Shown piece after piece: positions 5,594 through 22,635 of a stretch of 24,966 nt of DNA (positions are counted from its first letter, which is position 1; the number at the start of each line of letters is the position of its first letter). This stretch comes from a virus. Taxonomy: Duplodnaviria; Caudoviricetes. The notes under the pieces are model-generated. The model was not told the DNA's origin. It ran no database searches and saw nothing but the letters and a program-made list of their open reading frames with translations. The stretch is taken from IMG/VR virus record IMGVR_UViG_3300008011_000123, positions 1 to 24,966 of that record; one strand, written 5' to 3'. A program made the translations under genes and the position numbers.

Positions 5594-5805
5594 GCGATGA
5601 CAGCTGGAAGGGCGAGCATTTGATCCGCGGCTTGCGGCTTTCGAAAGAGGACAGCAAAAGCGTGGCGGTCAAGGTTGGCACGGCGCAGTTCAACCGCAAG
5701 CGCGCCAGACAGCGCGAACCGCACCCGGCGCAGGCTGAGAAAGACAAATTCTGCGCGCTGGTTTTCAAGAGCACGAGAGGAAAGAAAAAGCCCGATGGCA
5801 ACTAG
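5590..5805 (+). CDS. Hypothetical basic protein (71 aa)
   Basis: ATGA-coupled start; Lys/Arg-rich; ends overlapping the polymerase start by 11 nt. Confidence 0.6.
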   Translation: MSDDSWKGEHLIRGLRLSKEDSKSVAVKVGTAQFNRKRARQREPHPAQAEKDKFCALVFKSTRGKKKPDGN

Positions 5806-8437
5806 CATCGCAATCATTGTGCAGAACAGTCACGATCAGCGCGGGCGCGCGGCGACGAAACTTGTCAACGCCGTGTTCCCTTACGCCCGCTGCACGTTGG
5901 TCAACATGCGCAGTTACGTCAAAGGCTTCTGGGAATTGAAGCCCGGCACGAAAGAAACAATGCACGTTGGCGAAGGCGGGCACGAGCGGTTCGCGGAAAC
6001 GTGGGCGAAATTGGCGGACGGCCGCTACGATGCTGTCGTTTGTTTCGACGCCGGGCTAGCGCACCACGTGCTGCCACCGCGTGACGCAGCCACGATTAAG
6101 TCCACCGATCCGCTGGCCGGTATGGTCGTGCGGCATATGGGTCTGCCGGTGCTGTTCATCATGGACCCGCTGTGGACATACGGACGCAGTCACGACGCAG
6201 AAACGCAGGCCGTGCGGACTTTGATGATGATGTTTCATTTGAAGAAGCTGTGGGCGGCGCTCCAAGGTTTGCCGGTGCTGGAAAAGCCTGTGCAAGTTGC
6301 GGTGACGACGAGTGTGGCCGACCTGCGCGCGCTTGAGGAACTGGCAGCCGGCTCCGAAGCAATCGCGGTGGATATCGAGACTTCCGGCGGGTTCATTAGC
6401 TGCGTCGGTTTCGCAATGGAGTGCCCCGGCCGCGCCGCAAACCCTGTTTTTGTTGTCCCGTTGATGGTCAACATTGGCGACGGCAGTTATTGGGCGAATG
6501 AAATCACGTTGAATTTTGCGCTCGATACGATCGGCCGGGTGCTTGGCAATGACGTGCCGAAAATCATGCACAACGGCGGCACGTTTGACGCGGCTTGGCT
6601 GTTTCGCTACGGCTGGTGCCCGAGCAATTTCGTCTGGGACACGCAGCATATGATCCACGCGACGTGGCCGACGATGCCGAAAGCGCTTTACAACGGCGCC
6701 GGGCTGCTGCTTGGGAATTACAGATACTGGAAAGACGACGGGAAAGACGTTGACGAGCAGGGCAAAGCGAAATGGCAAGTGCCGACGCGGCCCGATGCGG
6801 CGCTGAGATACTGGCACTACAACGGGCTGGACTGCGCGAATACGTTGGAATTGTTCGTGGCCATCGTGCGCATGTGGGAGAAGGACGCCGCGATTGCGCC
6901 CCGCATTCCGGAATGGCAAGCCGGGTTCAAATACGCGTGGCGGAATTACGTGCGCGAAATCGCGCTCCAACTCGGCCCGTGCCTGTATATGTCGATGCAC
7001 GGCATGAAAGCTGACACCGCCCGGCAGGCTGGTTTGAAGAATAAACTGGTGGCCGAGGCGCGGGAAGCTGCGGAAAAACTAGAGGTGCTGGTGGACGACC
7101 CCAATTTCAACCCGAACAGCCCGCCGCAAGTCGCCGATTTGATTTACAACGTGCTGGACATCAAGCCGCTGGCCCGCAAAGGCAAGACCACCGACAAGCG
7201 CGTGACCGCCACGTTCGCCGACATGCACCCGATTTACGCCGACGTTATCCACGCCATCGAAGCCGTGAAAGAGCCGCGGAATAACGCCAGCAAATACGGC
7301 GACATGCCAAATTGGGGCGGCCGGATACTTTATTCCCTGAAAGCCGGGAACACTGTCACGACGCGGCTGGCCAGCAGTCAACACGCGTTTCGGGTCGGCA
7401 CGAATTTCCAGAATTACCCGTCCTCTATGCGCGAGTGGCTTGTGGCCGACGACGGCACCGTGTTTGTCTCGACAGACTACAGCCAGTCCGACAGTTATTT
7501 CGTCGCGTTTGAAAGCCAAGACAAGACGATGATGGATACGGTGACGGACGACCGTGATACCCACGCTGTCCACGTCGAGTTTTTCTTCGGGGATAAGTAT
7601 GAAGATGTTGTCCGGGGCGTGGCGGAGAAGGCTGCGTGGGTTGTGCACCCGGTCACCGGCAGGCGGCAGATCATCAAGAAAGTCAGCCACGGGACAAACT
7701 ACGACATGGGCGGCGCGACGATGCTGCTGAACGTGCGGAAAGACGCGGCCATCGCGATGTGCAATGCGCTGCTCGCCAGCCGGAACGCCAAGTTGTTCAT
7801 GAAATACATGGGGCTGGACATGGAAAAACCGGCGCAGCACTACATCGGTCACGCCAGCCTGTGGTCCACGCCGCAGTTGGAGAAGGCTTGCGAATTTGCG
7901 CAGCGGCTGTATTACTTGCGGTATAAAACGCTGGCGGACTGGAAGAAACTTTCCATCGGGGACGCAGCGCGGATGCACGGTTTGATCCCGATGTTCGGCG
8001 GCAGCACGGCAGTTATGGTTTGCAACCCGGCTAGAAACCCGCGGTTCGTTCCGGCGGCAAAAGGGCAGGGCGGAACGGCGGGAAATATCAACAACGCAAT
8101 GCTGCGGCTTTACTTCCTCGCGGAATACATGTGGCGGCGCGGGTTCAAAATGGTGCTGCAAGTCCACGACGAATTGGTCGTCACCGTCCCCGAAAATGAC
8201 CTCGACCTTATCCGCGCGAAGATCGCCATCATGGAAACGCCGTGCGAAATCCACGGCCGCAAATTCACCATTCCGGTCGAAGCAGAAATCTCCCGCTCTT
8301 GGAGCAAGAAAGCCACCGTCCATTTCACCGGCCTTGACAACGAAGCGCAGTCAAGCTACCTTACACGTATCAATGAAGTAGAGGCCAAACTGGCTTCCAG
8401 CTTTGAAAAATACATCCCCTTCACACACTTGGCATGA
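5795..8437 (+). CDS. polA: Phage DNA polymerase family A with 3'-5' exonuclease and degenerate N-terminal UDG-like domain (880 aa)
   Basis: ExoI VDIET, ExoII HNGGTFD, ExoIII YNGLD; TTRLASS, NFQN; motif A DYSQSD, motif B RQIIKKVSHGTNY, motif C LQVHDEL. Start re-called to ATG 5795 (MATSIAII). Confidence 0.95.
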   Translation: MATSIAIIVQNSHDQRGRAATKLVNAVFPYARCTLVNMRSYVKGFWELKPGTKETMHVGEGGHERFAETWAKLADGRYDAVVCFDAGLAHHVLPPRDAATIKSTDPLAGMVVRHMGLPVLFIMDPLWTYGRSHDAETQAVRTLMMMFHLKKLWAALQGLPVLEKPVQVAVTTSVADLRALEELAAGSEAIAVDIETSGGFISCVGFAMECPGRAANPVFVVPLMVNIGDGSYWANEITLNFALDTIGRVLGNDVPKIMHNGGTFDAAWLFRYGWCPSNFVWDTQHMIHATWPTMPKALYNGAGLLLGNYRYWKDDGKDVDEQGKAKWQVPTRPDAALRYWHYNGLDCANTLELFVAIVRMWEKDAAIAPRIPEWQAGFKYAWRNYVREIALQLGPCLYMSMHGMKADTARQAGLKNKLVAEAREAAEKLEVLVDDPNFNPNSPPQVADLIYNVLDIKPLARKGKTTDKRVTATFADMHPIYADVIHAIEAVKEPRNNASKYGDMPNWGGRILYSLKAGNTVTTRLASSQHAFRVGTNFQNYPSSMREWLVADDGTVFVSTDYSQSDSYFVAFESQDKTMMDTVTDDRDTHAVHVEFFFGDKYEDVVRGVAEKAAWVVHPVTGRRQIIKKVSHGTNYDMGGATMLLNVRKDAAIAMCNALLASRNAKLFMKYMGLDMEKPAQHYIGHASLWSTPQLEKACEFAQRLYYLRYKTLADWKKLSIGDAARMHGLIPMFGGSTAVMVCNPARNPRFVPAAKGQGGTAGNINNAMLRLYFLAEYMWRRGFKMVLQVHDELVVTVPENDLDLIRAKIAIMETPCEIHGRKFTIPVEAEISRSWSKKATVHFTGLDNEAQSSYLTRINEVEAKLASSFEKYIPFTHLA

Positions 8438-11770: not shown

Positions 11771-14700
11771 TTATTCCGGCGGGGTGCCGGCTTCCGGGTT
11801 CAGCAGCGCGTTAAACTCCACTCCGGCCGCCCGCAACCGCATGACAGACGCGTAATCGTGCCCGTAGACTTCGCCGAGTTGCCCGACCACTCGATCCAGC
11901 GCACGTTCCGCCCGCGTTTTTGTCCCCATTTCAGCCGTGTAATTCAGCCACCGGGGCCACTGGTCCTCGCGGCCGCCCGCCGAAATGTAGCTGTCCAGAA
12001 ACCGCAGCGCCGTTTCCTCGTCGAGCGACCCGTCCCGGAAACCGCGCAGCATTTGACTGCGGACCCGCGCCATGTCGGCCACGCGCTGCGATTGGGCTTG
12101 CGAGTTTTCCCAGAGCGCCGCCGAGACCTGCATTTCGTTCATGGTCCGGACGCCGATCAGTCGGGACAGTAAGCCCATGCCGCTGCGCGTGTCGTCGAGG
12201 ATCAGATTGCCCCGCCGGTCGATGCGCTCGCCGATTGCCAAGTCAGCCATGCTGCGGAAACCGCGCGACGGACCGTAGTTGGCAATGACCTCGCCGATGC
12301 GCGCCGTGTCAAATCCGCGGCCATTTACGGCGTTGGAGAGTTCTTCGCTGGTGCGCTTGACGCCCTCGCGCAGCCCTTCCCCCGTTTGCATGGCGAGAGA
12401 AATTGCGGGCGGAATAACCGGCGCTTGGAAGTTGAGGTCGCCGGAAGAATAGAGGTTCAAGCCGGTGTCTGCGCCGAGCAGTTTTGGCAAGCTGGACACG
12501 CTGCCAGACATAAGCAAATCGCCCATGCCCTTGCCCAGATTTTGGTGGATGCGCTCGTTCAGGCTGGTCGCGCCGCGCTCGTCCGCCTGCATGTTGCTGC
12601 CGTTGAAGTAAAGCGCGTTCAGCTGGTCCCATCCCGGCAGCCCGGCCATCCCGAAAATCCCCGCCTGCGTCATGGCTTGGATGGCCAGCGACCGCTTGTT
12701 GCCGTCTTGGATATAACGGAACAGCCGCTGGTAGATGTTGATCGAGTAGGACTGGAACAGCCCGAACGGAATACCGGCGCTGCCGCGGAATGCCTCGCCG
12801 CGGATATTGGGCGCAAAGTCGGCGATGTTGAGGTTGGAAAACTTATGGGCAAACGCGTGTTGCGCAGCTTCGGAAAGCCCCTCGCGGCCTGACTGCCGGA
12901 TAAGCGCCAAGCCAGCCATGTGCGCAACGGCCCGCGAGAACGTTTCAGACCGCTCGGACAGGCTTGGCGCAGAAGGCGTGGCGCCCCGGTTTTTCATCCC
13001 AAAGTTGATCACGCGGTTGTAGATGTCCGTCATGCCGATGAAGTCTTCGAGGATATCAGCCGTGTTCCGCTGCCCGTAGTTGTTCAGCTTGTTCAATTCT
13101 TCCAGCATATTTGCCGAAAGATACCCCCGCTGCGCGGCAAACTTATACGCCGCCGGGTCATTGAACACCATGTGCCAGCCTTCGAGAAACGCTTTGATCG
13201 GGCTGACCGTGGCAAACCCGCGCTCCGGGTCAATGTAGTCCGCCAAGTAGCCGAGCCGTTCCGCAAAGCGTTCCGCCGTTTCGCCCGTCCGCCGGATCAT
13301 CTGGTCGCGCACCGCCGGCAAAGTCACCGCCAGCCCCATCATGTTGAGGATCGGGTGCGCGATGTTCATATGCTTGAGCATAAAGCTGGCCGCGATCCGA
13401 TTTGCCGATTGCAGTTGGCGGCGCAGTTTGTAAGGGTCCGCGCTGATCCGGCCCTTGAACACGTCCTTCAAATCCGGCCGGTTGACCAGATGCGTAAACG
13501 GCGCGTAATTCGCGATTGCGTCCTCGACGTGTTTCCGCTGCGGCGCCGTCAGCCGGGCCAGCAGTTTGTTGTCGGTGCCGTTGATGATGGCGTCCGCCGC
13601 GCGCATGTTCCACGGCATGATGTCTGTCATGCGCCCGACGGTGGTGTTGTAGAGGCTGTCCACCCAATCGTGGGCACGGCGCGCGTGGCTGTCAACCGGA
13701 AGGCGGTCGCGGGCCAGCAGCAGATTTTCCCATTGTTCGGCCGCCGAGAAGTGCGTTTTCTGCCCGCGGACGCCGCCGCTGTCACCGTTGATGTGCGCCG
13801 TCCGCCGCGTGTTGGCAAAAGACTGCGAATACAAGCCAGTCAGCGTCCGGTCCTTGATGTCGTCAAAGCTGTTCCGCATCGCGATCATGTGTTCGGCCAT
13901 CAGTTCTTCCGGATTTGACATGCGGAAATCGAAATTGCGCCCGCCGCCCGCGCCAGTCTGCCGGTAGCCGCTCCAGTCCTGCAAGTTGGACAAGAAATTC
14001 TGGTCAGTCTGCTCGAAGTATTCGCGGATTTGCTCGGCCTTCATGGGGACCAGATGCTGCTCCGGCGGCAGTTTGGCATTGTGCGCATCGAGGGCGCGCC
14101 GCACTTCCGTTTCAACTTCCTGCACGGTGCGGCCCTTGATGTAGCCGACGACGCGGTTGGTTTTCGGGTCAGAGATATACCGCATTTCGTATCGCGAAAA
14201 ATCCGGAGCCGGCAAGTGGCCGTTCAGTTTGCTCTTCACGTGCAGACCCGATTGCCGGCGCAGAAAATTCTCAGCTTCGAGCAGCTTATACTGAATGGCG
14301 GTCGACATATTAAGCCGCTTCGCACCTTGTTCCGAAAGCTGGATCGGCACATACCGGCCCTCAGTCGCGGCGATAGTCACGTCAAAAAGATGCCACGGTT
14401 GGCCAGCGTCAGGCGCGCCGCGCAATGGCCCGAGGATTTCCAGCAGATGCGCCGCGCCGGGCCGGGTCATGTCAATCGCGTTCAGCCCCGGGACATACGC
14501 TTCCTCGACAAGCGCAACGCCGCGCGAGACCAGCGCGTAAGTCTGCCCGTATTCCGCCAGCACCCGCGCGCCCATGCCGGTCGTGTCGGCAAACAACTCG
14601 CGGTCCAATTGCGCAATCGGCAGAAGCTGCTCCTGCTTGATCGCGTCGATGGCCGTCTGCGCGATTTGGCCCTGCGTGTGCGCGTGTTGCAGCGTGTCTT

Positions 14701-17179
14701 GCAGCGCGTGGGCGTGTGTCGTTTGCGCCAGCGTGTTGTTGCGCGTCGTAAAGTCCAGGAAAATCTCGCTGCCTTTTTGCGCGCCGGCAAATGAGATTTC
14801 ATCTTCCTGCGCAGCGCGCGCCACGTTCTGCACCAATTCCGGCGCCTCGTTGGTGAACGCGTGATTGCGCAGCGCATTGCGGTTCCGGATCAATTTTGCC
14901 AGCTGAATGTCGGTGTCCGTCGGTTCGCGCAGCCGGTGGTAAAGCGCGCCAATGCCTTGCGCCGGATCGTCTTTCAGCGTCACGGCGAGGCTGCGCAGGC
15001 TCTCTTGGAACAGGCTTTCATCGCCCGGCAGATCAATCGGCGAGTCGCGGAAGCCCTTGCCAAGCTGAAACGCGGAGTCAAAAATCGCATTCGGCAGATC
15101 GCCGTCGGCCTTCAAAACCGTGCTGGCGGGCAGACTTTGACTGTCCATTGCCACGAACGCATCCCAAAGCAAATTCTTCATGCCGCGCTCGTCCGTCAGC
15201 CGCATGTTGAACAGCTTCTCGAAGTCAAACGGGTCGAGGTCAGCTTCGAGCGTGAAGCCCTTGTCCGCCCGCATGGCCCTGAAAGCCTCGAATTTCTTGA
15301 CCAGACTTTCCGACGCGGCGTATCCGATGTCAACCGCCGCCCGCACTTGCGCAGCCTTCGGCATGTTCGCCAAATCCGCCGGGATAGTCAGCCGCTTGTC
15401 AGCGATGGCGTCCAGCAGTTGATACGGCAGCTGGTCAAAACGCGCGTCGGGATCGGCCAGAAATTCCTTCCAGAAATTGTATGTCCACGTCTTGTTTTCC
15501 GCTGCGCGCGCCACCAGTCCGCTAAGCGCCGAAGCCTCGCTGAACGAAAGCGCGCCCGCGTCCAGCGCAGTTTGCTTCGTAAATCGGTCAGTGCGCGTCT
15601 CGAGGACGAGGTGCCCGCGGTTCGTCAGCGCGATTTGGCCGGTGCGGTCAGGGCCCTCAGTGAACCTGATGCCGTTGTTGTTCTGGCTGATTTGCGCGCG
15701 TTGGGCGAACGCGGTTTCTTCCCACGGCACCTGCCGGTCCGGGCTGTAATTCGCAACGCCGGTGCGCTCGATCACCGCCGCGCGGAACTGCTTGAGCGGA
15801 ACGAACTCTGCCCGCAGCGCGTCAAGTTCATCTTGCAGCTTCCGAATATCATCGACCGGGCTGTTTTTCTCGAGCGCAAGGTCGATTTCGCTGACAAGTT
15901 TATTCTCCATGTCCTGCATTCTGCGCCGGATTTGCTCGAACCTGCCGACGACACCGGGCTGCCCTTTCGCATTGCCCTGCGCATTTTCCAGCGACGCAAG
16001 GCCGTGCGTGGTCGCTTCGTTGTTCGTCACGCGCAGCCGCATAGCCGCCAGTGCTGCCGGGGCCAGCGCATACTCGCCGGAAATCGCAGGCATGTTGCCG
16101 AAGCCAGCCCGAAGCGTGTTGTTGTTATTCAGCTGGTATTTCGCCATCCGGGACAAGTGGCCGTTCATCAGGTTGCTGATCATCGCATCTTCCGCGCGCA
16201 CGGTCGCCATCAGCGCCTGATAAGACAGCGGCGAATTCGGCCTGCCAGCCAGCGCCGGGGTAGCACTTTCCAATTCGCGCACCAAACGCTGGCCGTGCAG
16301 CGCCGCCACAAGCCCCTGCCATTCCTCGCCGACGACGTTGAACAGCGTGTCGGAAACGTCCAAGCTGCCGCCCGCATGTGCCCGCGCCGCAGCCGCCGCC
16401 CGTTCGCCAGACTTACTTGCCGCCCGCAGCCCTCTGCGCATAGCCGCGCGGCCGAGAATGTGCTCGATACCCACGTTCAGCCCGACGCCAAGCCCGCCGA
16501 ACGCAAGATACGCCATGCTGCCCATTTCGTCGGGGAACAGAAAGTCGGAATTATTGAACGTCGCGGCCAGCGCAATTTCAACCGCGACCCCCTCTTTGAT
16601 CGCCTGCGTGGTCCGCGCCGTCCGCATCCAGTCTTGCACGTCGCCAAAAGTCCGCCCGTAGGCAGCCAGCGCGGTGCCGGAAGTTGACGACGCAAGGTCA
16701 AGCCCGGGGCTGTTGCGGCGCAAACGGGAGCCGACTTCGACGGCATGCAGCCTGCGCGTTGCGGCCATAATCGTGTCAACGTCGCGCACTTCCTGCATGG
16801 TGCTGAAAACTGCGCGCGCCGCATCCTCGCCAAAACGCGCTTGGAAAAGCTGGCCTGCGCGGCTTGAAACTTGCACCCCGCGCATGACCACGCCGACGCC
16901 CGCAAACATCGCGGCCGTGTTGCCGACCATGTCGTAAAGCCCTTTGCTGCGGTGATACTGCGTCGCGCCCGCGGGCACAAAGCTGTCGACCACATTGTCG
17001 TAGCCAAGCACATTCGGGACAGCGTTGAGCAGCGACGTGGCCGTGGTGTCCACAACGGCCAGCGGGTAATTCCAGACGGCCAGCCCGTCGCCGAGGCGCG
17101 CGTTTTGCTCGTCTTGAATTGTTTGCAGCATCCGCGTCGGAATGCCGATGCCTTCGCTGACTTGATCAGAAATTGCCAT
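11771..17179 (-). CDS. Large internal virion / DNA ejection protein (1802 aa)
   Basis: Last and largest gene of the late block; helical, no Cys seen, Gly-rich hydrophobic segments (MAYLAFGGLGVGLNVGI; AGIFGMAGLPGW); position analogous to T7 gp16. No catalytic motif recognised. Confidence 0.75.
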   Translation of the reverse strand: MAISDQVSEGIGIPTRMLQTIQDEQNARLGDGLAVWNYPLAVVDTTATSLLNAVPNVLGYDNVVDSFVPAGATQYHRSKGLYDMVGNTAAMFAGVGVVMRGVQVSSRAGQLFQARFGEDAARAVFSTMQEVRDVDTIMAATRRLHAVEVGSRLRRNSPGLDLASSTSGTALAAYGRTFGDVQDWMRTARTTQAIKEGVAVEIALAATFNNSDFLFPDEMGSMAYLAFGGLGVGLNVGIEHILGRAAMRRGLRAASKSGERAAAAARAHAGGSLDVSDTLFNVVGEEWQGLVAALHGQRLVRELESATPALAGRPNSPLSYQALMATVRAEDAMISNLMNGHLSRMAKYQLNNNNTLRAGFGNMPAISGEYALAPAALAAMRLRVTNNEATTHGLASLENAQGNAKGQPGVVGRFEQIRRRMQDMENKLVSEIDLALEKNSPVDDIRKLQDELDALRAEFVPLKQFRAAVIERTGVANYSPDRQVPWEETAFAQRAQISQNNNGIRFTEGPDRTGQIALTNRGHLVLETRTDRFTKQTALDAGALSFSEASALSGLVARAAENKTWTYNFWKEFLADPDARFDQLPYQLLDAIADKRLTIPADLANMPKAAQVRAAVDIGYAASESLVKKFEAFRAMRADKGFTLEADLDPFDFEKLFNMRLTDERGMKNLLWDAFVAMDSQSLPASTVLKADGDLPNAIFDSAFQLGKGFRDSPIDLPGDESLFQESLRSLAVTLKDDPAQGIGALYHRLREPTDTDIQLAKLIRNRNALRNHAFTNEAPELVQNVARAAQEDEISFAGAQKGSEIFLDFTTRNNTLAQTTHAHALQDTLQHAHTQGQIAQTAIDAIKQEQLLPIAQLDRELFADTTGMGARVLAEYGQTYALVSRGVALVEEAYVPGLNAIDMTRPGAAHLLEILGPLRGAPDAGQPWHLFDVTIAATEGRYVPIQLSEQGAKRLNMSTAIQYKLLEAENFLRRQSGLHVKSKLNGHLPAPDFSRYEMRYISDPKTNRVVGYIKGRTVQEVETEVRRALDAHNAKLPPEQHLVPMKAEQIREYFEQTDQNFLSNLQDWSGYRQTGAGGGRNFDFRMSNPEELMAEHMIAMRNSFDDIKDRTLTGLYSQSFANTRRTAHINGDSGGVRGQKTHFSAAEQWENLLLARDRLPVDSHARRAHDWVDSLYNTTVGRMTDIMPWNMRAADAIINGTDNKLLARLTAPQRKHVEDAIANYAPFTHLVNRPDLKDVFKGRISADPYKLRRQLQSANRIAASFMLKHMNIAHPILNMMGLAVTLPAVRDQMIRRTGETAERFAERLGYLADYIDPERGFATVSPIKAFLEGWHMVFNDPAAYKFAAQRGYLSANMLEELNKLNNYGQRNTADILEDFIGMTDIYNRVINFGMKNRGATPSAPSLSERSETFSRAVAHMAGLALIRQSGREGLSEAAQHAFAHKFSNLNIADFAPNIRGEAFRGSAGIPFGLFQSYSINIYQRLFRYIQDGNKRSLAIQAMTQAGIFGMAGLPGWDQLNALYFNGSNMQADERGATSLNERIHQNLGKGMGDLLMSGSVSSLPKLLGADTGLNLYSSGDLNFQAPVIPPAISLAMQTGEGLREGVKRTSEELSNAVNGRGFDTARIGEVIANYGPSRGFRSMADLAIGERIDRRGNLILDDTRSGMGLLSRLIGVRTMNEMQVSAALWENSQAQSQRVADMARVRSQMLRGFRDGSLDEETALRFLDSYISAGGREDQWPRWLNYTAEMGTKTRAERALDRVVGQLGEVYGHDYASVMRLRAAGVEFNALLNPEAGTPPE

Positions 17180-17186
17180 TGCTCAG

Positions 17187-19736
17187 TTACTCCCGCGATT
17201 TCATTGCTGTGCGAACTGCGTCGGGGTCCAAGCCCATCGAGCGCAGTTCATTTTCGATGTCGGCCCGCGTCAGTCCCTTCGCGCCAAGATCGTAGACCAA
17301 GCCAGACAGAAAATTCTCCGGCCGCCGCCTGTCCGGGTTTGACAAATCGCGCATCATCAACCGCATGATCGCCATTTCCACGCTGGCCTGTGCCTGCCGC
17401 TGACCAGCCGTTTGACGCGCCGGGCCGCCCTGCCGCAAGATAGCCGCCGCTGTCTGAGACACCGCCCCGGGCTCGCCAAACGCATACGCCCGGCTGCTGA
17501 TTTGCAATTGCGTCGTGCCCTGCTGCTGCAAGTTGACGCCCGCGAGGTTCTGCGCGAATGTCGTTTGCAGGGCGCGGACGGTTGTCGGCACGATGTCTTC
17601 GAACGCAACCGCGCCTTCGCCATGCGTCGGAACGCCAAGGACAGAGCGGTTAAACTCTGTCAGGAACCCGGCCATTTCGCGGCTTGGAACGCCGTTGGGA
17701 CTGCCCGCGATGAATTTCGCCAACTCGTCGCTGTTGTTCAGCGCGTCTTGCATGACCCGGAAGATCGCGCCGCGCTGGTATGCGGGCCCCGGATTTTCAT
17801 CGCCGTTTCGCGCCGCCTGTTCCTGTTCGCGCAGGATCATCCGCTCCAGCATAACGCCCGCCGAGACGATCCGCCGCTGGTAATCCGTCGCCGAAACGCC
17901 CTGCATACTGCCGTCCACCAGCGGCGAGAGCAATTCCTGCGCGTCGTCCGGGAGAAACTGCGCAAGGCTGGAATTCAACAGCGCGTCCAGCATTACATTT
18001 CCGGCAACATAACCGGCGCTGTCCTGCACGATGCTGATGATGTGCCCGTCCGTGACCTGCCCGCTGGTGCCGATCAGCCGGTCGCGGTTAAGATCAGTCA
18101 GACTGGCATTCGGGTCTTGCGCCCAGCGGTCGAAATCTGCCGGACGGATGCCGCGTTCTTTCAGCAGCGCGCTCAGGGCAGCGCCAAACGGGTGCCCGCG
18201 GAAACTCGCGTCGCTGAAACCAACGGCTGAAACGAGCGCAGCTTTGACGCTTTCCCCGCTGCTGAACCGGCCCTGCGTGATATCTTCCACCACGTATTCC
18301 GGCGCGCCAGTAGCCCGCAATGCATCGGCCGCCAAATTGCGCGCCTGCTGTGCCGCTTGCTGTGCCGTTTCGATCAGCGCCGCTTGCCGGGCCGGGTCTT
18401 GCTCGCGCGCCGCCGCAGCGAAAAGGTCAACCGACTGGCCCATCATTGCCTGCATTCCGATCCGCGTTTCGCTGGGCAGGCCGACGGCCATCGACATTGT
18501 CGTTTCGATGATCCGCTGCGTGTCGCGCTGCTCGTGCATGAACCGGCGCATGTTGACGTTAGTGGACAAGGCGACGGTGGCGGCCGCCTGCTGGTTTTGC
18601 ATGTCGGTGATGAACGATTGCAACAGCGCCATCGGTGCCATGGACACGGTAGTCCCGTTGGCCGTTGTCACCGTAATGTTCGGCAGTTTGGCCAGCGCAT
18701 CGGAGATTTCAGAAATTGCGCCGGGGTCGTTGTAGACTTGCTCCTGCATCGTCGCCATGTCCGCGCCCAAAGCCGTCGCGATTTCTTGCAGCTTTTGAAG
18801 CGGTGACATGGTGGCCGTCGCCATTTGCGCGAGTTGCGCGGCGTTGGTTTCGGCGGCCAAATCAATCGCGCCAAACTGAACGCGGGCAGCCTCGATTTCC
18901 TGCCGCCGCTGCATTGCCTCGCCGATAGCCAGCATCGAAACGCCCTGCGGCAACTCCAATTCGCCGTTGGCATATTTCATCAAATCGGCCGTCGAGATAT
19001 CACCGTTGCTGGCCAGCTGGTGCGCCTGCATTGTGACCGTGTTCCCCATCCGCGTGATCATCTGCGCGTCTTGCTGGTTCAGCGCGGTGGTCATGGTGGC
19101 CAGCGCGTCGTGCGCAGCTGCGCGGTTTGCGGTCCCGAACGTCTGGCGCAAAAGGCTGGGGTCGTTGCCGTTCCAGATTTCATACAGCTGGTCGATGGAA
19201 AGCCCGCTGTTCATCGTCGCTTCGATGATCTTGTCCGTCTCGGCCGCGCGCTCGATGCTGGTCGCAGCCTGCCGGTTTTGCGCAATCGCGGCAGAGTTGG
19301 CCGACAGCGTAGCGTCCAGCCGGGACTGGAACGTCGCCTCGTTCATATTGTTCGTCATTTCGAGGTCGCGGACGCGCTGCGCGTTGTAGTCGTTCTCCAG
19401 CCGCTGCGACAAATTCCGCACGTCGGCAGAACTGTTCATCAGAAACTGCTCCAATTCGGCCACGCGGGCGCGCCTGCCGGTAGCGTCGTAGCCAGCGCCG
19501 CGCAAATTCATCCGGGCAGTCGGGCTCGCGTTGGCCAGCAGGCTTTCCGATTGCGTGATATCATTCAACTCGCGCAGCGCACCTTGCAAGTTGGCGGGCA
19601 CGACTTGACCAGCTTGCGCGTAGGAGTTGGCGATTTCCGAAGAAAACACGTGATTGCCCGCAGCATCAGCGCGCGCCGCAATGCCGGTCCCGTAGCGCTC
19701 GGCCAGCCCGCGCATGAAAGTGTTGTCGTTTGCCAT
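17187..19736 (-). CDS. Probable internal virion / ejection protein (849 aa)
   Basis: Ala/Gln/Met-rich helical protein, no Cys seen; SD AAGGGA; position analogous to T7 gp15. Confidence 0.7.
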   Translation of the reverse strand: MANDNTFMRGLAERYGTGIAARADAAGNHVFSSEIANSYAQAGQVVPANLQGALRELNDITQSESLLANASPTARMNLRGAGYDATGRRARVAELEQFLMNSSADVRNLSQRLENDYNAQRVRDLEMTNNMNEATFQSRLDATLSANSAAIAQNRQAATSIERAAETDKIIEATMNSGLSIDQLYEIWNGNDPSLLRQTFGTANRAAAHDALATMTTALNQQDAQMITRMGNTVTMQAHQLASNGDISTADLMKYANGELELPQGVSMLAIGEAMQRRQEIEAARVQFGAIDLAAETNAAQLAQMATATMSPLQKLQEIATALGADMATMQEQVYNDPGAISEISDALAKLPNITVTTANGTTVSMAPMALLQSFITDMQNQQAAATVALSTNVNMRRFMHEQRDTQRIIETTMSMAVGLPSETRIGMQAMMGQSVDLFAAAAREQDPARQAALIETAQQAAQQARNLAADALRATGAPEYVVEDITQGRFSSGESVKAALVSAVGFSDASFRGHPFGAALSALLKERGIRPADFDRWAQDPNASLTDLNRDRLIGTSGQVTDGHIISIVQDSAGYVAGNVMLDALLNSSLAQFLPDDAQELLSPLVDGSMQGVSATDYQRRIVSAGVMLERMILREQEQAARNGDENPGPAYQRGAIFRVMQDALNNSDELAKFIAGSPNGVPSREMAGFLTEFNRSVLGVPTHGEGAVAFEDIVPTTVRALQTTFAQNLAGVNLQQQGTTQLQISSRAYAFGEPGAVSQTAAAILRQGGPARQTAGQRQAQASVEMAIMRLMMRDLSNPDRRRPENFLSGLVYDLGAKGLTRADIENELRSMGLDPDAVRTAMKSRE

Positions 19737-19753
19737 CGGTTATTCCCTTTCCA

Positions 19754-20446
19754 TCATTCAAACAGGCGAGCCAGCTGGACGCCGGAAATCACCTGCGCCG
19801 TAGCCGCGCGACTTTGCCCGCTGTCGCCAATCCGCAGGCCGGGCTGGCTGAACGGCGTATTGGCCGCATTGTGCCGGGCGTTCGCCAGCGACTGCATATT
19901 GGCCTCAAAAGCGGCCCGCCGGGGGTTCATGTCTTGCGGCCCGCGCAATTGCGCAACTTGGCCATTCGAAGACGACGGCCCTTCCGCAACGTCCAAACGC
20001 GGGGTCGCCGGTTGACTGCCTTGGCCCGCTACCCGTCCGCCGCCCGGTCCGCGCGCGCCAGACAGAATGTTCCGCAGGTAGCCTTGAGTTTCGGCGGGCA
20101 GATTTGCGCGATTTCCGTTCCACCGATCGGCGTTTCCGGCGCCCCAATTATACGCGGCCAGCGCGCGCTCGACGTTCCCGTCATAGCGGTTCAGCATCGC
20201 GCCTAGGTATTCCTCGCCAAACCGCCGGTTCTCCTGCGCGTCAAATCGCCGGTTCCAGTCCAGCGGCCGAACACCGAAACCGGGGGCGCGCGCCGTGTCG
20301 GGCATGACCTGCATCAAGCCAGCCGCGCCGGCGCCCGAAACGGCTCTCGGATTTCCGCGACTTTCCTGCCAGATCACGGCTTCGACAAGCTGGTCAAAGG
20401 CAGGCGTCCCGGGGCGCACGTTGCTGCCCACCATCCAATCAGTCAT
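19754..20446 (-). CDS. Virion-associated lytic transglycosylase (SLT domain) with low-complexity C-terminus (230 aa)
   Basis: QESRGNPRAVS (catalytic Glu), GAAGLMQVMPDTA, ALAAYNWG, ETQGY. Confidence 0.93.
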   Translation of the reverse strand: MTDWMVGSNVRPGTPAFDQLVEAVIWQESRGNPRAVSGAGAAGLMQVMPDTARAPGFGVRPLDWNRRFDAQENRRFGEEYLGAMLNRYDGNVERALAAYNWGAGNADRWNGNRANLPAETQGYLRNILSGARGPGGGRVAGQGSQPATPRLDVAEGPSSSNGQVAQLRGPQDMNPRRAAFEANMQSLANARHNAANTPFSQPGLRIGDSGQSRAATAQVISGVQLARLFE

Positions 20447-20447
20447 G

Positions 20448-21335
20448 TCAGAACATCCTCATGATGGGGCCGGAGCCAACAGCCAGCGGATGCGGCGCAA
20501 TACGGTCAGGACGACCTTGGACCGCGCGATCGCGTTGAATAATCTGCCCGCCGGTGCCGTCTTCGTCAACAAGCCGCGTCTGATTTCGCGGTCTGCGGTC
20601 CGGCGTTTGTTGCGGCTGAGCAGGTTGCGCAGGCTGATCGGGCGTGTTTTTCTGGCCAGTTTTCCGGTCAGCAATCTGCTGGTCAAGCCCTTCCAGCATA
20701 CGCTGCTCGATGCCGGTCAGCATCATTTCCAGCAGCCGGTCGGCGCCGGGCGCATTGCGTTGACGTTCCGGGCCGGGAACCGCCGTCAGTTGCGCAAGCA
20801 ATTTCGCCTCGTCCGGAGAGACCACGGATTTATTTTCCAGCGCAAGCGCAGCAGCCTTGTCCGCCGTCGTCGAATTGCTGCCCTTCTGCTCCGCCTTGAT
20901 CTGCTCGGGCGTCAAGTCTTGCGGCCCCGTGACCGCGCCAGACCCGCGGACGGCAGCGTCGCCAGCCAGCACGGCTTGATCAATCATCATGGAGCCAGAC
21001 GTGTTGACAGCTTGCGGGCCGATAATGCCGGTCTCGCGGAACGATTGCAACGCCGCGACTTGCGCTTCCATGCCGAGATTGAACCCGGTGCTGCCGGTCA
21101 CAGGCGTCCAGTTGCCCTGCGGCCCGCGCACCTCGATCACGCCGTCCATGGCCATATGCGGCGGCAAATTGTCCCGGCCGTAAAGCATGGCGAAATTCTC
21201 GCGGGCCGCAATGGCAACGGGGTTGACAGTCTCGCGGTAAACGAGGCGGGCGTCGGGGCCTTCCATCTGCACGATATCCGGCCGCGGTTGCCGACGAGCA
21301 GGGCCGGCGCCGAAAATCCTTCTCAACATCTCCAT
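20448..21335 (-). CDS. Hypothetical virion-module protein (295 aa), probable ejection protein
   Basis: SD GGAG; Gln/Pro-rich linker (DQPAQPAQPQQ); stop 1 nt before the SLT start. Confidence 0.7.
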   Translation of the reverse strand: MEMLRRIFGAGPARRQPRPDIVQMEGPDARLVYRETVNPVAIAARENFAMLYGRDNLPPHMAMDGVIEVRGPQGNWTPVTGSTGFNLGMEAQVAALQSFRETGIIGPQAVNTSGSMMIDQAVLAGDAAVRGSGAVTGPQDLTPEQIKAEQKGSNSTTADKAAALALENKSVVSPDEAKLLAQLTAVPGPERQRNAPGADRLLEMMLTGIEQRMLEGLDQQIADRKTGQKNTPDQPAQPAQPQQTPDRRPRNQTRLVDEDGTGGQIIQRDRAVQGRPDRIAPHPLAVGSGPIMRMF

Positions 21336-21349
21336 CGTTTTTCTCCGTG

Positions 21350-22150
21350 TTATGGCGCGCTGGGGATCAAAGCCGCGATGCCCAAGCTGTCACCGATTGC
21401 CGCCGTCGCCGTCCCGTAAGCCCCGTCGTTGTCCGCCACGTCCACGCCCTCGTGGTAAAACCGGCCGAGCAGATCGAACGTCCTGTTGCCCTCGTCGCGG
21501 TTCTCTGTGTAGTCGCGGTCGGTCAGTTCGATTGTCTCCGCGCCGCGCAAAACGCCCCACATGATGTTCAAGCCGCTCAAGCCGACCTCCTGCATTCTCG
21601 CCCGCGCGTTCATCTGCATCTCAAACGCCTGCGCAATGGCGGTGCTTTCGTGCTCCTTGAACCGGCGCAGACTTTCCGCAATGTGACCGGCGATCCGGCG
21701 GGTGACTTCGATTTCCGCCTTTGTCGTCATTTCCTGCACGAGGCAGTTGAGGCTGCTACCGGCCGTCCGCGCCCACTGGTTCGAGTTGAGGTAAATGTGG
21801 TTCAGCATTTCCGTCTTGAGGTCGTCGATTTCGTCGCCAAGCAGCGTCCGGAAATCCGGGTAAAGTGAAATCGCGCGATCCCAAGCGGCCCCGGCGCGCG
21901 TCGTCAAGTCGGCTTTGTCCGTGCAAAACGTGTCAACGGTGCAGGTCTCCAAACTCACGATCGCCTCGCGCAGCTGCGCCCGGTCGTCGTCCGTCAGCAG
22001 CGTCCCGGTGCGCGTGATGTCCTCGGTCCCGTCGACTGCGAGGTCCACGTTGACGATTTTCGTCCCGACATTTCCTTCAAACCCGCCTTTGCGCGTCGAG
22101 GAATTGCGGAACATGTATTCGGAAGTATCGTTGAAATTGATCGTTGTCAT
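21350..22150 (-). CDS. Probable small ejection protein (266 aa)
   Basis: ATGA overlap with acyltransferase; SD GAGGG; Thr-rich ends, helical core, Gly/Ala hydrophobic C-terminus (GAYGTATAAIGDSLGIAALIP). Confidence 0.65.
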   Translation of the reverse strand: MTTINFNDTSEYMFRNSSTRKGGFEGNVGTKIVNVDLAVDGTEDITRTGTLLTDDDRAQLREAIVSLETCTVDTFCTDKADLTTRAGAAWDRAISLYPDFRTLLGDEIDDLKTEMLNHIYLNSNQWARTAGSSLNCLVQEMTTKAEIEVTRRIAGHIAESLRRFKEHESTAIAQAFEMQMNARARMQEVGLSGLNIMWGVLRGAETIELTDRDYTENRDEGNRTFDLLGRFYHEGVDVADNDGAYGTATAAIGDSLGIAALIPSAP

Positions 22151-22635
22151 TTGCCGCCCTCTCGCTTGGCCAAGTTAGGCAATTTGCCGCGCCGCATCTT
22201 GCCGTTGCTGCTGACCATCCTGTGAAACTCGTCGTAGTCTTTGCCGACGCTGGCACCGAACGCCAACTGCAAATCCTTCCCGTGGCCGAGCGGCGCGCAG
22301 AAATCCATATACCACATCGCGCTGCCGGATTTCCACTCGTCAGGCATCAGCGGCCGCAGGAATTTGGAGAAGATCACTTCCGCCGGGCGCGACAGCCATG
22401 CCCACGTGACAAACGCGACCGGCATTTTCGCCACCGCGTCTTTGTCCACGCGTTCGTAAAGCAGCCCATACTGCCCGCGCGAAATCGGAATGCGCGTATT
22501 CTCGGTGAAAGTGAACAGCGCCGTGCTGCCGTATTCAGCACTCAGGCAGCCGATCATAGCCACCATTGCCAGCGCGCGCATCTGGTCAGCTTCCTGACCG
22601 AAGACCAGCGTGTCAGTTTCGTGCAGTATTTTCAT
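22147..22635 (-). CDS. HlyC/TAAT-family (RTX toxin-activating) lysine acyltransferase homolog (162 aa)
   Basis: PISRGQY..., PVAFVTWAWLS, L.PDEWKSG..MWYMDFCAPLG align by eye with HlyC [42 protein letters not shown] GAGGA. Confidence 0.9.
   Translation of the reverse strand: MKILHETDTLVFGQEADQMRALAMVAMIGCLSAEYGSTALFTFTENTRIPISRGQYGLLYERVDKDAVAKMPVAFVTWAWLSRPAEVIFSKFLRPLMPDEWKSGSAMWYMDFCAPLGHGKDLQLAFGASVGKDYDEFHRMVSSNGKMRRGKLPNLAKREGGK

Follow-up and report, generated by a model that had tools for sequence, protein, structure and literature searches.

Known acyltransferase-fold genes of toxin and phage ejection loci

All characterized toxin-activating acyltransferases (TAATs) acylate internal lysines (PMC8510554, PMC8953716). 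Catalysis involves a His/Asp dyad, in which Asp is the base and His protonates the thiolate of the acyl carrier protein (ACP); the His-to-Ala mutants of CdiC and ApxC are partly active, and the Asp mutant is inactive (PMC8510554). In class IV contact-dependent inhibition, CdiC lipidates a neighbour protein, resulting in binding to the outer membrane of the target bacterium (PMC8510554). Here we analyze a 24,966-nucleotide stretch of phage DNA (IMG/VR record IMGVR_UViG_3300008011_000123, positions 1–24,966; hereafter, the window), which is about half of a ~48-kb genome (longest contig, 48,015 nucleotides) and encodes a 162-residue TAAT homolog with a modified active site directly upstream of, and overlapping, the gene for a 266-residue putative ejection protein. 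The TAAT fold, the Tyr/Asp pair in the active site, and the coupling of the two genes and its recurrence are observed; to acylation of the partner's N-terminal tip by this enzyme, the reading that we prefer, we assign about an even chance.

Small acyltransferase-fold genes without known substrates are often found ahead of the ejection genes of short-tailed phages. Like the genes for T7 gp13, Cobavirus pc40 and P22 gp14 (which we take to be of the GNAT type), the TAAT gene of the window precedes that of a likely gp14/gp7-type protein; unlike them, it is of the TAAT and not the GNAT type (Pfam PF11090, PF11039), which points to acyl-ACP as the donor and to a longer chain than for the GNAT-type genes. 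The GNAT-like nature of pc40 and gp13, and the location of a GNAT gene beside internal virion genes, have been noted (PMC6775973).

As the sequence-only reading, made earlier from the letters of the window, had remarked, HlyC-like genes are annotated in other phages (10.1101/2019.12.14.876532), and no demonstrated substrate of a phage TAAT is known: the literature that we searched, with most subscription papers outside its coverage, contains annotation-level mentions only. Two such annotated genes are gp30 of Roseobacter phage CRP-235 and gp46 of pelagiphage HTVC112P. The accessible portions of PMC11288001, PMC8954989, PMC8953716 and PMC10386132 give no substrate for a phage TAAT or GNAT, and, within the same coverage, there is no report of the Tyr-type subfamily, the partner motif or lipidated ejection proteins.

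A Tyr-type TAAT homolog coupled to its downstream gene

The open reading frame (ORF) at 22147..22635 (minus strand) encodes a 162-residue protein that matches the Pfam HlyC family (PF02794; E value 4.4e-11, 43.2 bits at a gathering cut-off of 25) and ApxC, the one TAAT with a solved structure (PDB 4whn), by both sequence (5.2e-6) and profile (2.5e-13). The structural model (predicted local distance difference test score, pLDDT, 96.9) has 4whn as its top three Foldseek matches (E value 3e-8, template modelling score 0.67–0.71), followed by GNATs at E > 4e-3, and the weaker fold matches include T7-like host-range/gp13-type proteins. The ORF is a homolog of TAAT-fold acyltransferases, with a similarity far beyond chance, so that the earlier claim of a clear HlyC/TAAT homolog withstands comparison with HlyC and ApxC by both profile and structure.

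The protein resembles HlyC, ApxC, CyaC and RtxC in fold, size and the catalytic Asp motif, and its gene directly precedes that of the presumed substrate. Ser and Asn occupy the positions of ApxC Ser21 and Asn35; we take the ApxC numbering to be Ser21, Asn35 and Asp93, which is consistent with the profile alignment. The differences are an additional N-terminal beta-hairpin in the model (residues 2–14), the location in a phage late operon without an RTX protoxin or type I secretion genes, and, above all, the active site. In the ungapped profile alignment to ApxC, Tyr35 (22531..22533, minus strand) replaces the catalytic His (ApxC His24), and Asp111 (22303..22305, minus strand), in the motif WxxDxxAPxG, aligns with the catalytic Asp. 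Lacking the His, the protein is a variant of the TAAT family rather than a plain member.

The replacement extends across a subfamily, a point missed by the sequence-only reading, as was the loss of Asp in some of the homologs paired with a 266-residue protein. Among the 38 close homologs retrieved by a profile search (three matches longer than 260 residues were excluded from the alignment), the His column contains Tyr in 29 and His in only two, compared with His in 66 of the 115 other aligned rows; the Asp column contains Asp in 28 and Glu in three. R94 (37/38), W108, D111 and H118 are conserved in the Tyr-type subfamily, and a rapid tree built from 79 rows places the 29 chosen Tyr-type rows on one side of a branch with 96% support. 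A single origin of the Tyr-type and viral His-type TAATs is neither rejected nor demonstrated by the approximately unbiased test (p = 0.47). Dozens of homologs, the most distant at about 25% identity, have an intact reading frame, and, between the window gene and that of its nearest relative (L009), the nonsynonymous difference (pN, 0.37) is well below the synonymous one (pS, 0.70). A conserved Tyr serves as the general acid in some GNAT enzymes, so that the Tyr-type enzyme may plausibly be active. Phage TAATs in general look active because all 17 representatives of the viral His-type clusters described below keep the His. A further Tyr-type group, with a DxRY motif (P0056, P0063, P0071, P0082, P0084, P0101, P0124 and P0129), has mostly Gln or His at the catalytic Asp position.

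The TAAT gene overlaps, by the four nucleotides ATGA, the gene of the 266-residue protein (21350..22150, minus strand), as previously noted. Direct synteny of the Tyr-type TAAT was observed in the window, in a longer contig of the same phage (L007), and in one relative represented by two near-identical contigs (L008 and L009), where the order of the entire cluster, TAAT-266-295-SLT-849-1802, is kept and the identity to the window proteins is 49% for the TAAT and 72% for the 266-residue protein. Searches of the viral_contigs and genome_contigs sets found no loci with a Tyr-type TAAT or a member of the 266-residue protein family, and another locus search returned only TAAT loci outside the close Tyr-type subfamily. 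An indirect sign of adjacency comes from contig sizes: for 13 of the 38 Tyr-type clusters, including that of the window, the longest contig is exactly equal in size to that of a 266-family protein, with three of these pairs on contigs shorter than 2 kb and with both Tyr and Asp present in 10 of the 13 paired enzymes. The pairing of the Tyr-type TAAT with the 266-residue family recurs, and the 266-residue neighbour is the likeliest substrate, in agreement with its earlier nomination as a candidate target; its acylation is a matter of the mechanism proposed below. A mirror-identity test on the 13 pairs (rho 0.29; 230 of 5000 permutations) gave a weak signal that is explained by kinship and is not used as evidence.

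The partner as a putative first ejection protein

The 266-residue protein has 42 homologs and no Pfam match; PHROG and Atlas searches with the family gave nothing usable, and Foldseek against viral models yielded a single weak, nameless match. Its model (mean pLDDT 76.8, predicted template modelling score 0.36) consists of a long beta-hairpin (residues 18–50 with 205–237) set on an alpha-hairpin (54–204), with both chain ends at the far end of the beta-hairpin. When the model was compared with 48,161 solved chains (VIA), rank 1 was ejected T7 gp14 (7ey7_A; Z 10.7, root mean square deviation 3.4, 102 aligned residues) and rank 9 was T7 gp14 again (Z 9.1, deviation 3.9, 127 aligned), both below the bar of about 13 that applies to helical bundles. 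By gene order, the protein occupies the gp14/gp7-class position: it is the first in the ejection cluster, belongs to the 180–300-residue size class, and follows a small acyltransferase-fold gene. As in T7 gp14 and P22 gp7, there is a mildly hydrophobic Gly/Ala tail; none of the 42 family members reaches 1.6 on a 19-residue scale for a strong transmembrane helix, and neither do T7 gp14 and P22 gp7. The likeness of the model to T7 gp14 is suggestive only; together with the gene position, it makes the protein a likely first ejection protein of the T7 gp14 type. In the ejected T7 channel, gp14 takes the form of a two-helix hairpin retained in the nozzle, and the distal end of the channel is located at the lipopolysaccharide (PMC11784390); on this analogy, the 266-residue protein would face the membrane with its N-terminal tip.

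A resemblance by eye to the PaMx41 gp22-like proteins, in layout, was not upheld as homology by hhalign (probability 0.3%, not significant). C70 and C76 are kept in 39 of the 42 homologs and C136 in 35, which might form disulfides or serve as thioester sites. A strain variant occurs at residue 38, with Ala in the window but Lys in the longer contig.

Proposed acylation of the N-terminal tip

Late in infection, the 162-residue enzyme would take a fatty acyl chain from host acyl-ACP, the donor expected from its family, with Asp111 acting as the base and Tyr35 as a stand-in acid that protonates the leaving thiolate. The chain would be placed on the N-terminal tip of the 266-residue predicted ejection protein, where the candidate acylation region spans residues 1–21 and ends with K21 of STRKGGF (22088..22150, minus strand); translational coupling and the adjacent-gene logic of hlyCA and cdiCA suggest this protein as the substrate. 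The putative acceptor is the alpha-amine freed by Met removal, which we slightly favour over K21 because every Lys near the tip varies among the homologs, while phage TAATs are repeatedly followed by proteins with Gly-rich or leader-plus-GGDG N-termini and most of these downstream motifs contain no Lys. The 266-residue protein is likely packaged, and, after ejection, the lipid would aid the engagement of the next host's outer membrane by the channel, as proposed for CdiA. We suggest this membrane purpose because the two termini are at the distal end of the model hairpin, the end that meets the lipopolysaccharide in ejected T7 gp14. Further support comes from the position of the TAAT gene, which matches that of T7 gene 13 (GNAT-like; PMC6775973) before gp14.

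Within the 266-residue family, a Met-Gly start is found in 26 of the 42 homologs, compared with 14 of 421 control ORFs, and 38 of the 42 contain a Lys somewhere in residues 17–24. The motifs TRKGG (K21) and GTKIV (K31), singled out by the sequence-only reading, are present near the N-terminus, but neither is Gly-Lys, and the lysines are poorly kept (K21, Lys in 18/42 and Arg in 20/42; K31, Lys in 5/42); in one partner whose enzyme retains both Tyr and Asp, the K21 motif is devoid of Lys. In P22 gp7, a 20-residue leader is cut by OpdA (PMC8402733). The processed P22 gp7 N-terminus also reads K21-G-G, a likeness that, given the Arg in 20 homologs and the Lys-free partner, we retain as a lead only.

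A close parallel is CdiC, a TAAT recruited to lipidate a non-RTX protein encoded next door, as is proposed for the window enzyme; in both cases, some related loci lack the enzyme. The differences are that the His/Asp dyad is intact in CdiC and that its substrate Lys is internal to a surface filament, whereas the putative target in the window is an ejection protein predicted to be packaged. A TAAT in the ejection slot bears on the way in which short-tailed phages insert a largely polar protein channel into the outer membrane, as it suggests a donor (acyl-ACP), a substrate (the product of the following gene) and two residues for mutagenesis. If the proposed acylation is real, fatty acylation joins phage virion maturation and the TAAT family gains a His-free catalytic variant.

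Other phage TAATs and their downstream genes

Viral contigs scanned for the His-type pattern contained 115 matches; the survey covers the best 80, which form 17 clusters at 70% identity. Packaging, head or tail genes are neighbours in 12 of the 17 (terminase, portal, head, tail or internal virion genes named by PHROG in nine, and three more that share the gene map of scanned loci); the remaining ones are three clusters beside unnamed large genes and two RTX pairs. A T7-like ejection cluster is the setting in only two clusters and in L095, and many others lie by the portal gene; in T7, the small ejected proteins gp6.7 and gp7.3 are encoded by the portal region (PMC11784390). The anticipated synteny of phage TAATs with ejection genes is accordingly upheld in that they are linked to virion genes, with no RTX toxin, but most of the loci are adjacent to portal, terminase or tail genes and not part of a three-gene ejection cluster.

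In the surveyed loci, the gene after the TAAT usually overlaps it, and its product has either a leader of 12–45 residues followed by a CFGGDG, CYKGDG or FDSDSG-like motif or a direct MGSD or MNGD start. A leader with C[FY]GGDG-like motif or an MG[GS]/MNGD start is present in 11 of the 15 clusters with a downstream ORF and in 68 of 78 loci, compared with five of 367 other ORFs.

CRP-235 gp30 and HTVC112P gp46 are likewise in virion modules and precede proteins that start with MGG (MGGGGG in CRP-235). Both are outside the Tyr-type subfamily and, in the papers found, are known from annotation only; HTVC112P has a tape-measure tail, and its TAAT gene (L010:12007-12393) lies between gpL-like and gpJ-like tail-tip genes, with Phe and Glu aligned at the His and Asp positions.

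A tentative generalization is that tailed phages share a widespread and so far unrecognised lipidation step, in which His- and Tyr-type TAATs fatty-acylate the N-terminal amine of an adjacent small virion protein after Met removal or after a leader cut before the GGDG-like motif has exposed it. We regard this as rather unlikely; if confirmed, it would be the bacterial-virus equivalent of N-myristoylation in animal-virus entry proteins, would extend TAATs to a new acceptor chemistry and would hint at the role of the T7 gp13-type GNAT genes.

The leader ending in a [WYFL]C[FY]GGDG-like motif, followed by an acidic, Gly-rich and Lys-poor region, recurs in the gene after the TAAT in L013-L051, L053-L060, L062-L063, L065-L069, L071-L078 and L081-L087. 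This leader is similar to the one cleaved from P22 gp7 and may identify a class of processed virion proteins that has not been described. Two acyltransferase-partner pairs are arranged in tandem in the ejection cluster of three loci (L089:4857-7788, L080:869-3863 and L095:4244-7523): a gp13-like gene (phrog_308) followed by an MC(M)GGGGG protein, then a TAAT followed by an MGSD, MNGD or MSSD protein, and then a gp14-like MCDP/MCNP protein, an arrangement which suggests that either enzyme is dedicated to the gene directly after it. In L091:5986-7298, the TAAT gene is located between the terminase and portal genes, ahead of small genes that include one with a T7 gp7.3-like start (MGSVKKAVKK), near the slot of T7 gene 7. 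In L093:7974-8456 and L094:5807-6289, a His-type TAAT comes directly after the portal gene and lacks a motif-bearing neighbour, the next gene encoding a conserved basic 90-residue protein.

Weighing the alternatives

Several observations weigh against acylation of the N-terminal tip. The catalytic His is lost in the window enzyme (Tyr35), and cdiC(H37A) is null-like in competition (PMC8510554). Asp is lost as well in three of the 13 paired homologs (Gln, Arg and Met), one of which also lacks Tyr, and the pairing persists. The window's 266-residue protein begins with MTT and that of its nearest relative with MAL, neither of which is Gly-rich, and the profile comparison of the family with gp14 (hhalign) was not significant, at a probability of 0.3%. 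The N-terminus of gp7 from P22 particles, the protein that follows the equivalent slot, was readable as Lys-Gly-Gly-Lys-Gly and so is unblocked (PMC8402733). The 80 surveyed loci are His-type, that is, of another subfamily than the window's, and the downstream motif pattern was written after the sequences had been seen. Finally, the stretches of PaMx41, Ph_15, Tiera, P5 and EBPR podovirus 3 that cover the structural modules contain no TAAT; these phages share the giant protein of the cluster, and the gene is therefore dispensable for this virion type, or replaced.

The main rival, which we consider a minority possibility but a serious one, is that the 162-residue protein derives from a TAAT but has little or no catalytic activity and is retained to bind or chaperone the 266-residue protein, keeping it in solution or bringing it into the head. 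Such a role explains the coupling equally well and would accommodate the absence of His in 36 of the 38 close homologs, the absence of both dyad residues from HTVC112P gp46, and the persistence of pairing without Asp. The substitutions are not random, however: Tyr is conserved in 29 of the 38 homologs and Asp or Glu in 31, as expected of active-site residues, and the His-type viral representatives uniformly retain the His.

Improbable, in our assessment, is an active enzyme whose targets are internal lysines, either of other or several virion proteins, as in the "lipidated ejectosome" of the sequence-only reading with its two LGKG sites in the 1802-residue protein, or K165 or K79 of the 266-residue protein. 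Internal lysines are the targets of the characterized TAATs, and K165 is Lys in all 13 paired partners and in 35 of the 42 homologs, with K79 being Lys in 37; no Lys of the family is invariant, and both residues are inside predicted long helices of the model. The LGKG sites exist but do not fare well as targets: Met replaces K708 in the nearest relative, one of four distant relatives (the only ones comparable) has a Lys at K1550, and the 1802-residue protein has two GK dipeptides compared with 4.1 expected from composition. On conservation grounds, we reject the Gly-Lys target sites; the 230-residue protein of the cluster contains no Lys, and none of the seven Lys of the 295-residue protein is kept in L009.

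It is very improbable that a host protein or lipid is the enzyme's target, in take-over or counter-defence, with the late-operon location reflecting timing only. Phage GNATs with host targets exist, the slot varies among phages (portal, terminase, tail tip), and the TAATs of L093 and L094 have no motif-bearing neighbour; yet the overlap with one type of downstream gene recurs across very different slots, and a host-directed gene needs none. Least credible of all is a decaying relic of a bacterial RTX operon without current function, an explanation that would fit the faster divergence of the TAAT compared with its partner and the absence of the gene from the structural modules of the PaMx41-like phages but sits poorly with the intact frames, the subfamily-specific conserved residues and a pN well below pS.

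The putative ejection gene cluster and the phage

The six minus-strand ORFs encode proteins of 162, 266, 295, 230, 849 and 1802 residues, in this order, with intergenic gaps of -4 (the ATGA overlap), 14, 1, 17 and 7 nucleotides; our ORF calls agree with the five co-oriented genes downstream of the TAAT gene as they were originally placed. The description of these five as virion genes holds to a different extent for each. Database matches are available for the 230- and 1802-residue proteins, the model and gene position for the 266-residue protein, and position alone for the other two. The 295-residue protein (20448..21335, minus strand) has no Pfam or PHROG match; a 48% identical ortholog occupies the same place in L008/L009. 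The 230-residue protein (19754..20446, minus strand) is a lytic transglycosylase (Pfam SLT, 1.9e-26) that also matches PHROG families of lytic tail and internal virion proteins and is likely to be a virion-associated wall-piercing enzyme. The 849-residue protein (17187..19736, minus strand) has a 58% identical ortholog in L009 and no family match at the cut-off in Pfam or PHROG; its position makes it the likely middle (tunnel) ejection protein. The 1802-residue giant (11771..17179, minus strand; phrog_16165), likely the large ejection protein, is homologous to the structural protein gp24 of PaMx41 and is matched in PaMx41 and 18 other records (tblastn, 5e-16), one of which is annotated as an ejection protein.

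The phage appears to be a PaMx41-like podovirus, although only a distant relative of Jamesmcgillvirus (PaMx41-like, Fredfastierviridae). The gene layout of the window resembles that of Jamesmcgillvirus phages; genus-level similarity across the genome, as expected of a member, was not found, the identity to gp24 of PaMx41 and relatives being 23–31% and confined to the C-terminal part of the giant protein. An RTX toxin operon (rtxCABD) is a poor description of the locus, with no GGxGxD protoxin beside the C gene and phage genes as neighbours. Indeed, as initially reported, the window has neither an RTX toxin nor a type I secretion gene: no GGxGxD repeats were detected in any of its six frames and no secretion-system families among the 23 main ORFs scanned. 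Promoter and terminator matches were at chance level.

In the Pfam/PHROG scan, the minus strand of the window also carries an amidase gene in addition to the virion genes, and the plus strand encodes DNA polymerase A, primase, MazG-like and exonuclease proteins; a further 7.7 kb read in the longer contig of the same phage extends upstream of the window genes and contains tail genes. The family A DNA polymerase (5675-8437), of up to 920 residues, includes an extra N-terminal domain, with no Pfam match in the first ~200 residues. The SLT protein, 230 residues long in the window, has 435 residues in the relative (L009:5171-6478), where an insert of about 200 residues separates the SLT domain from the shared C-terminal tail.

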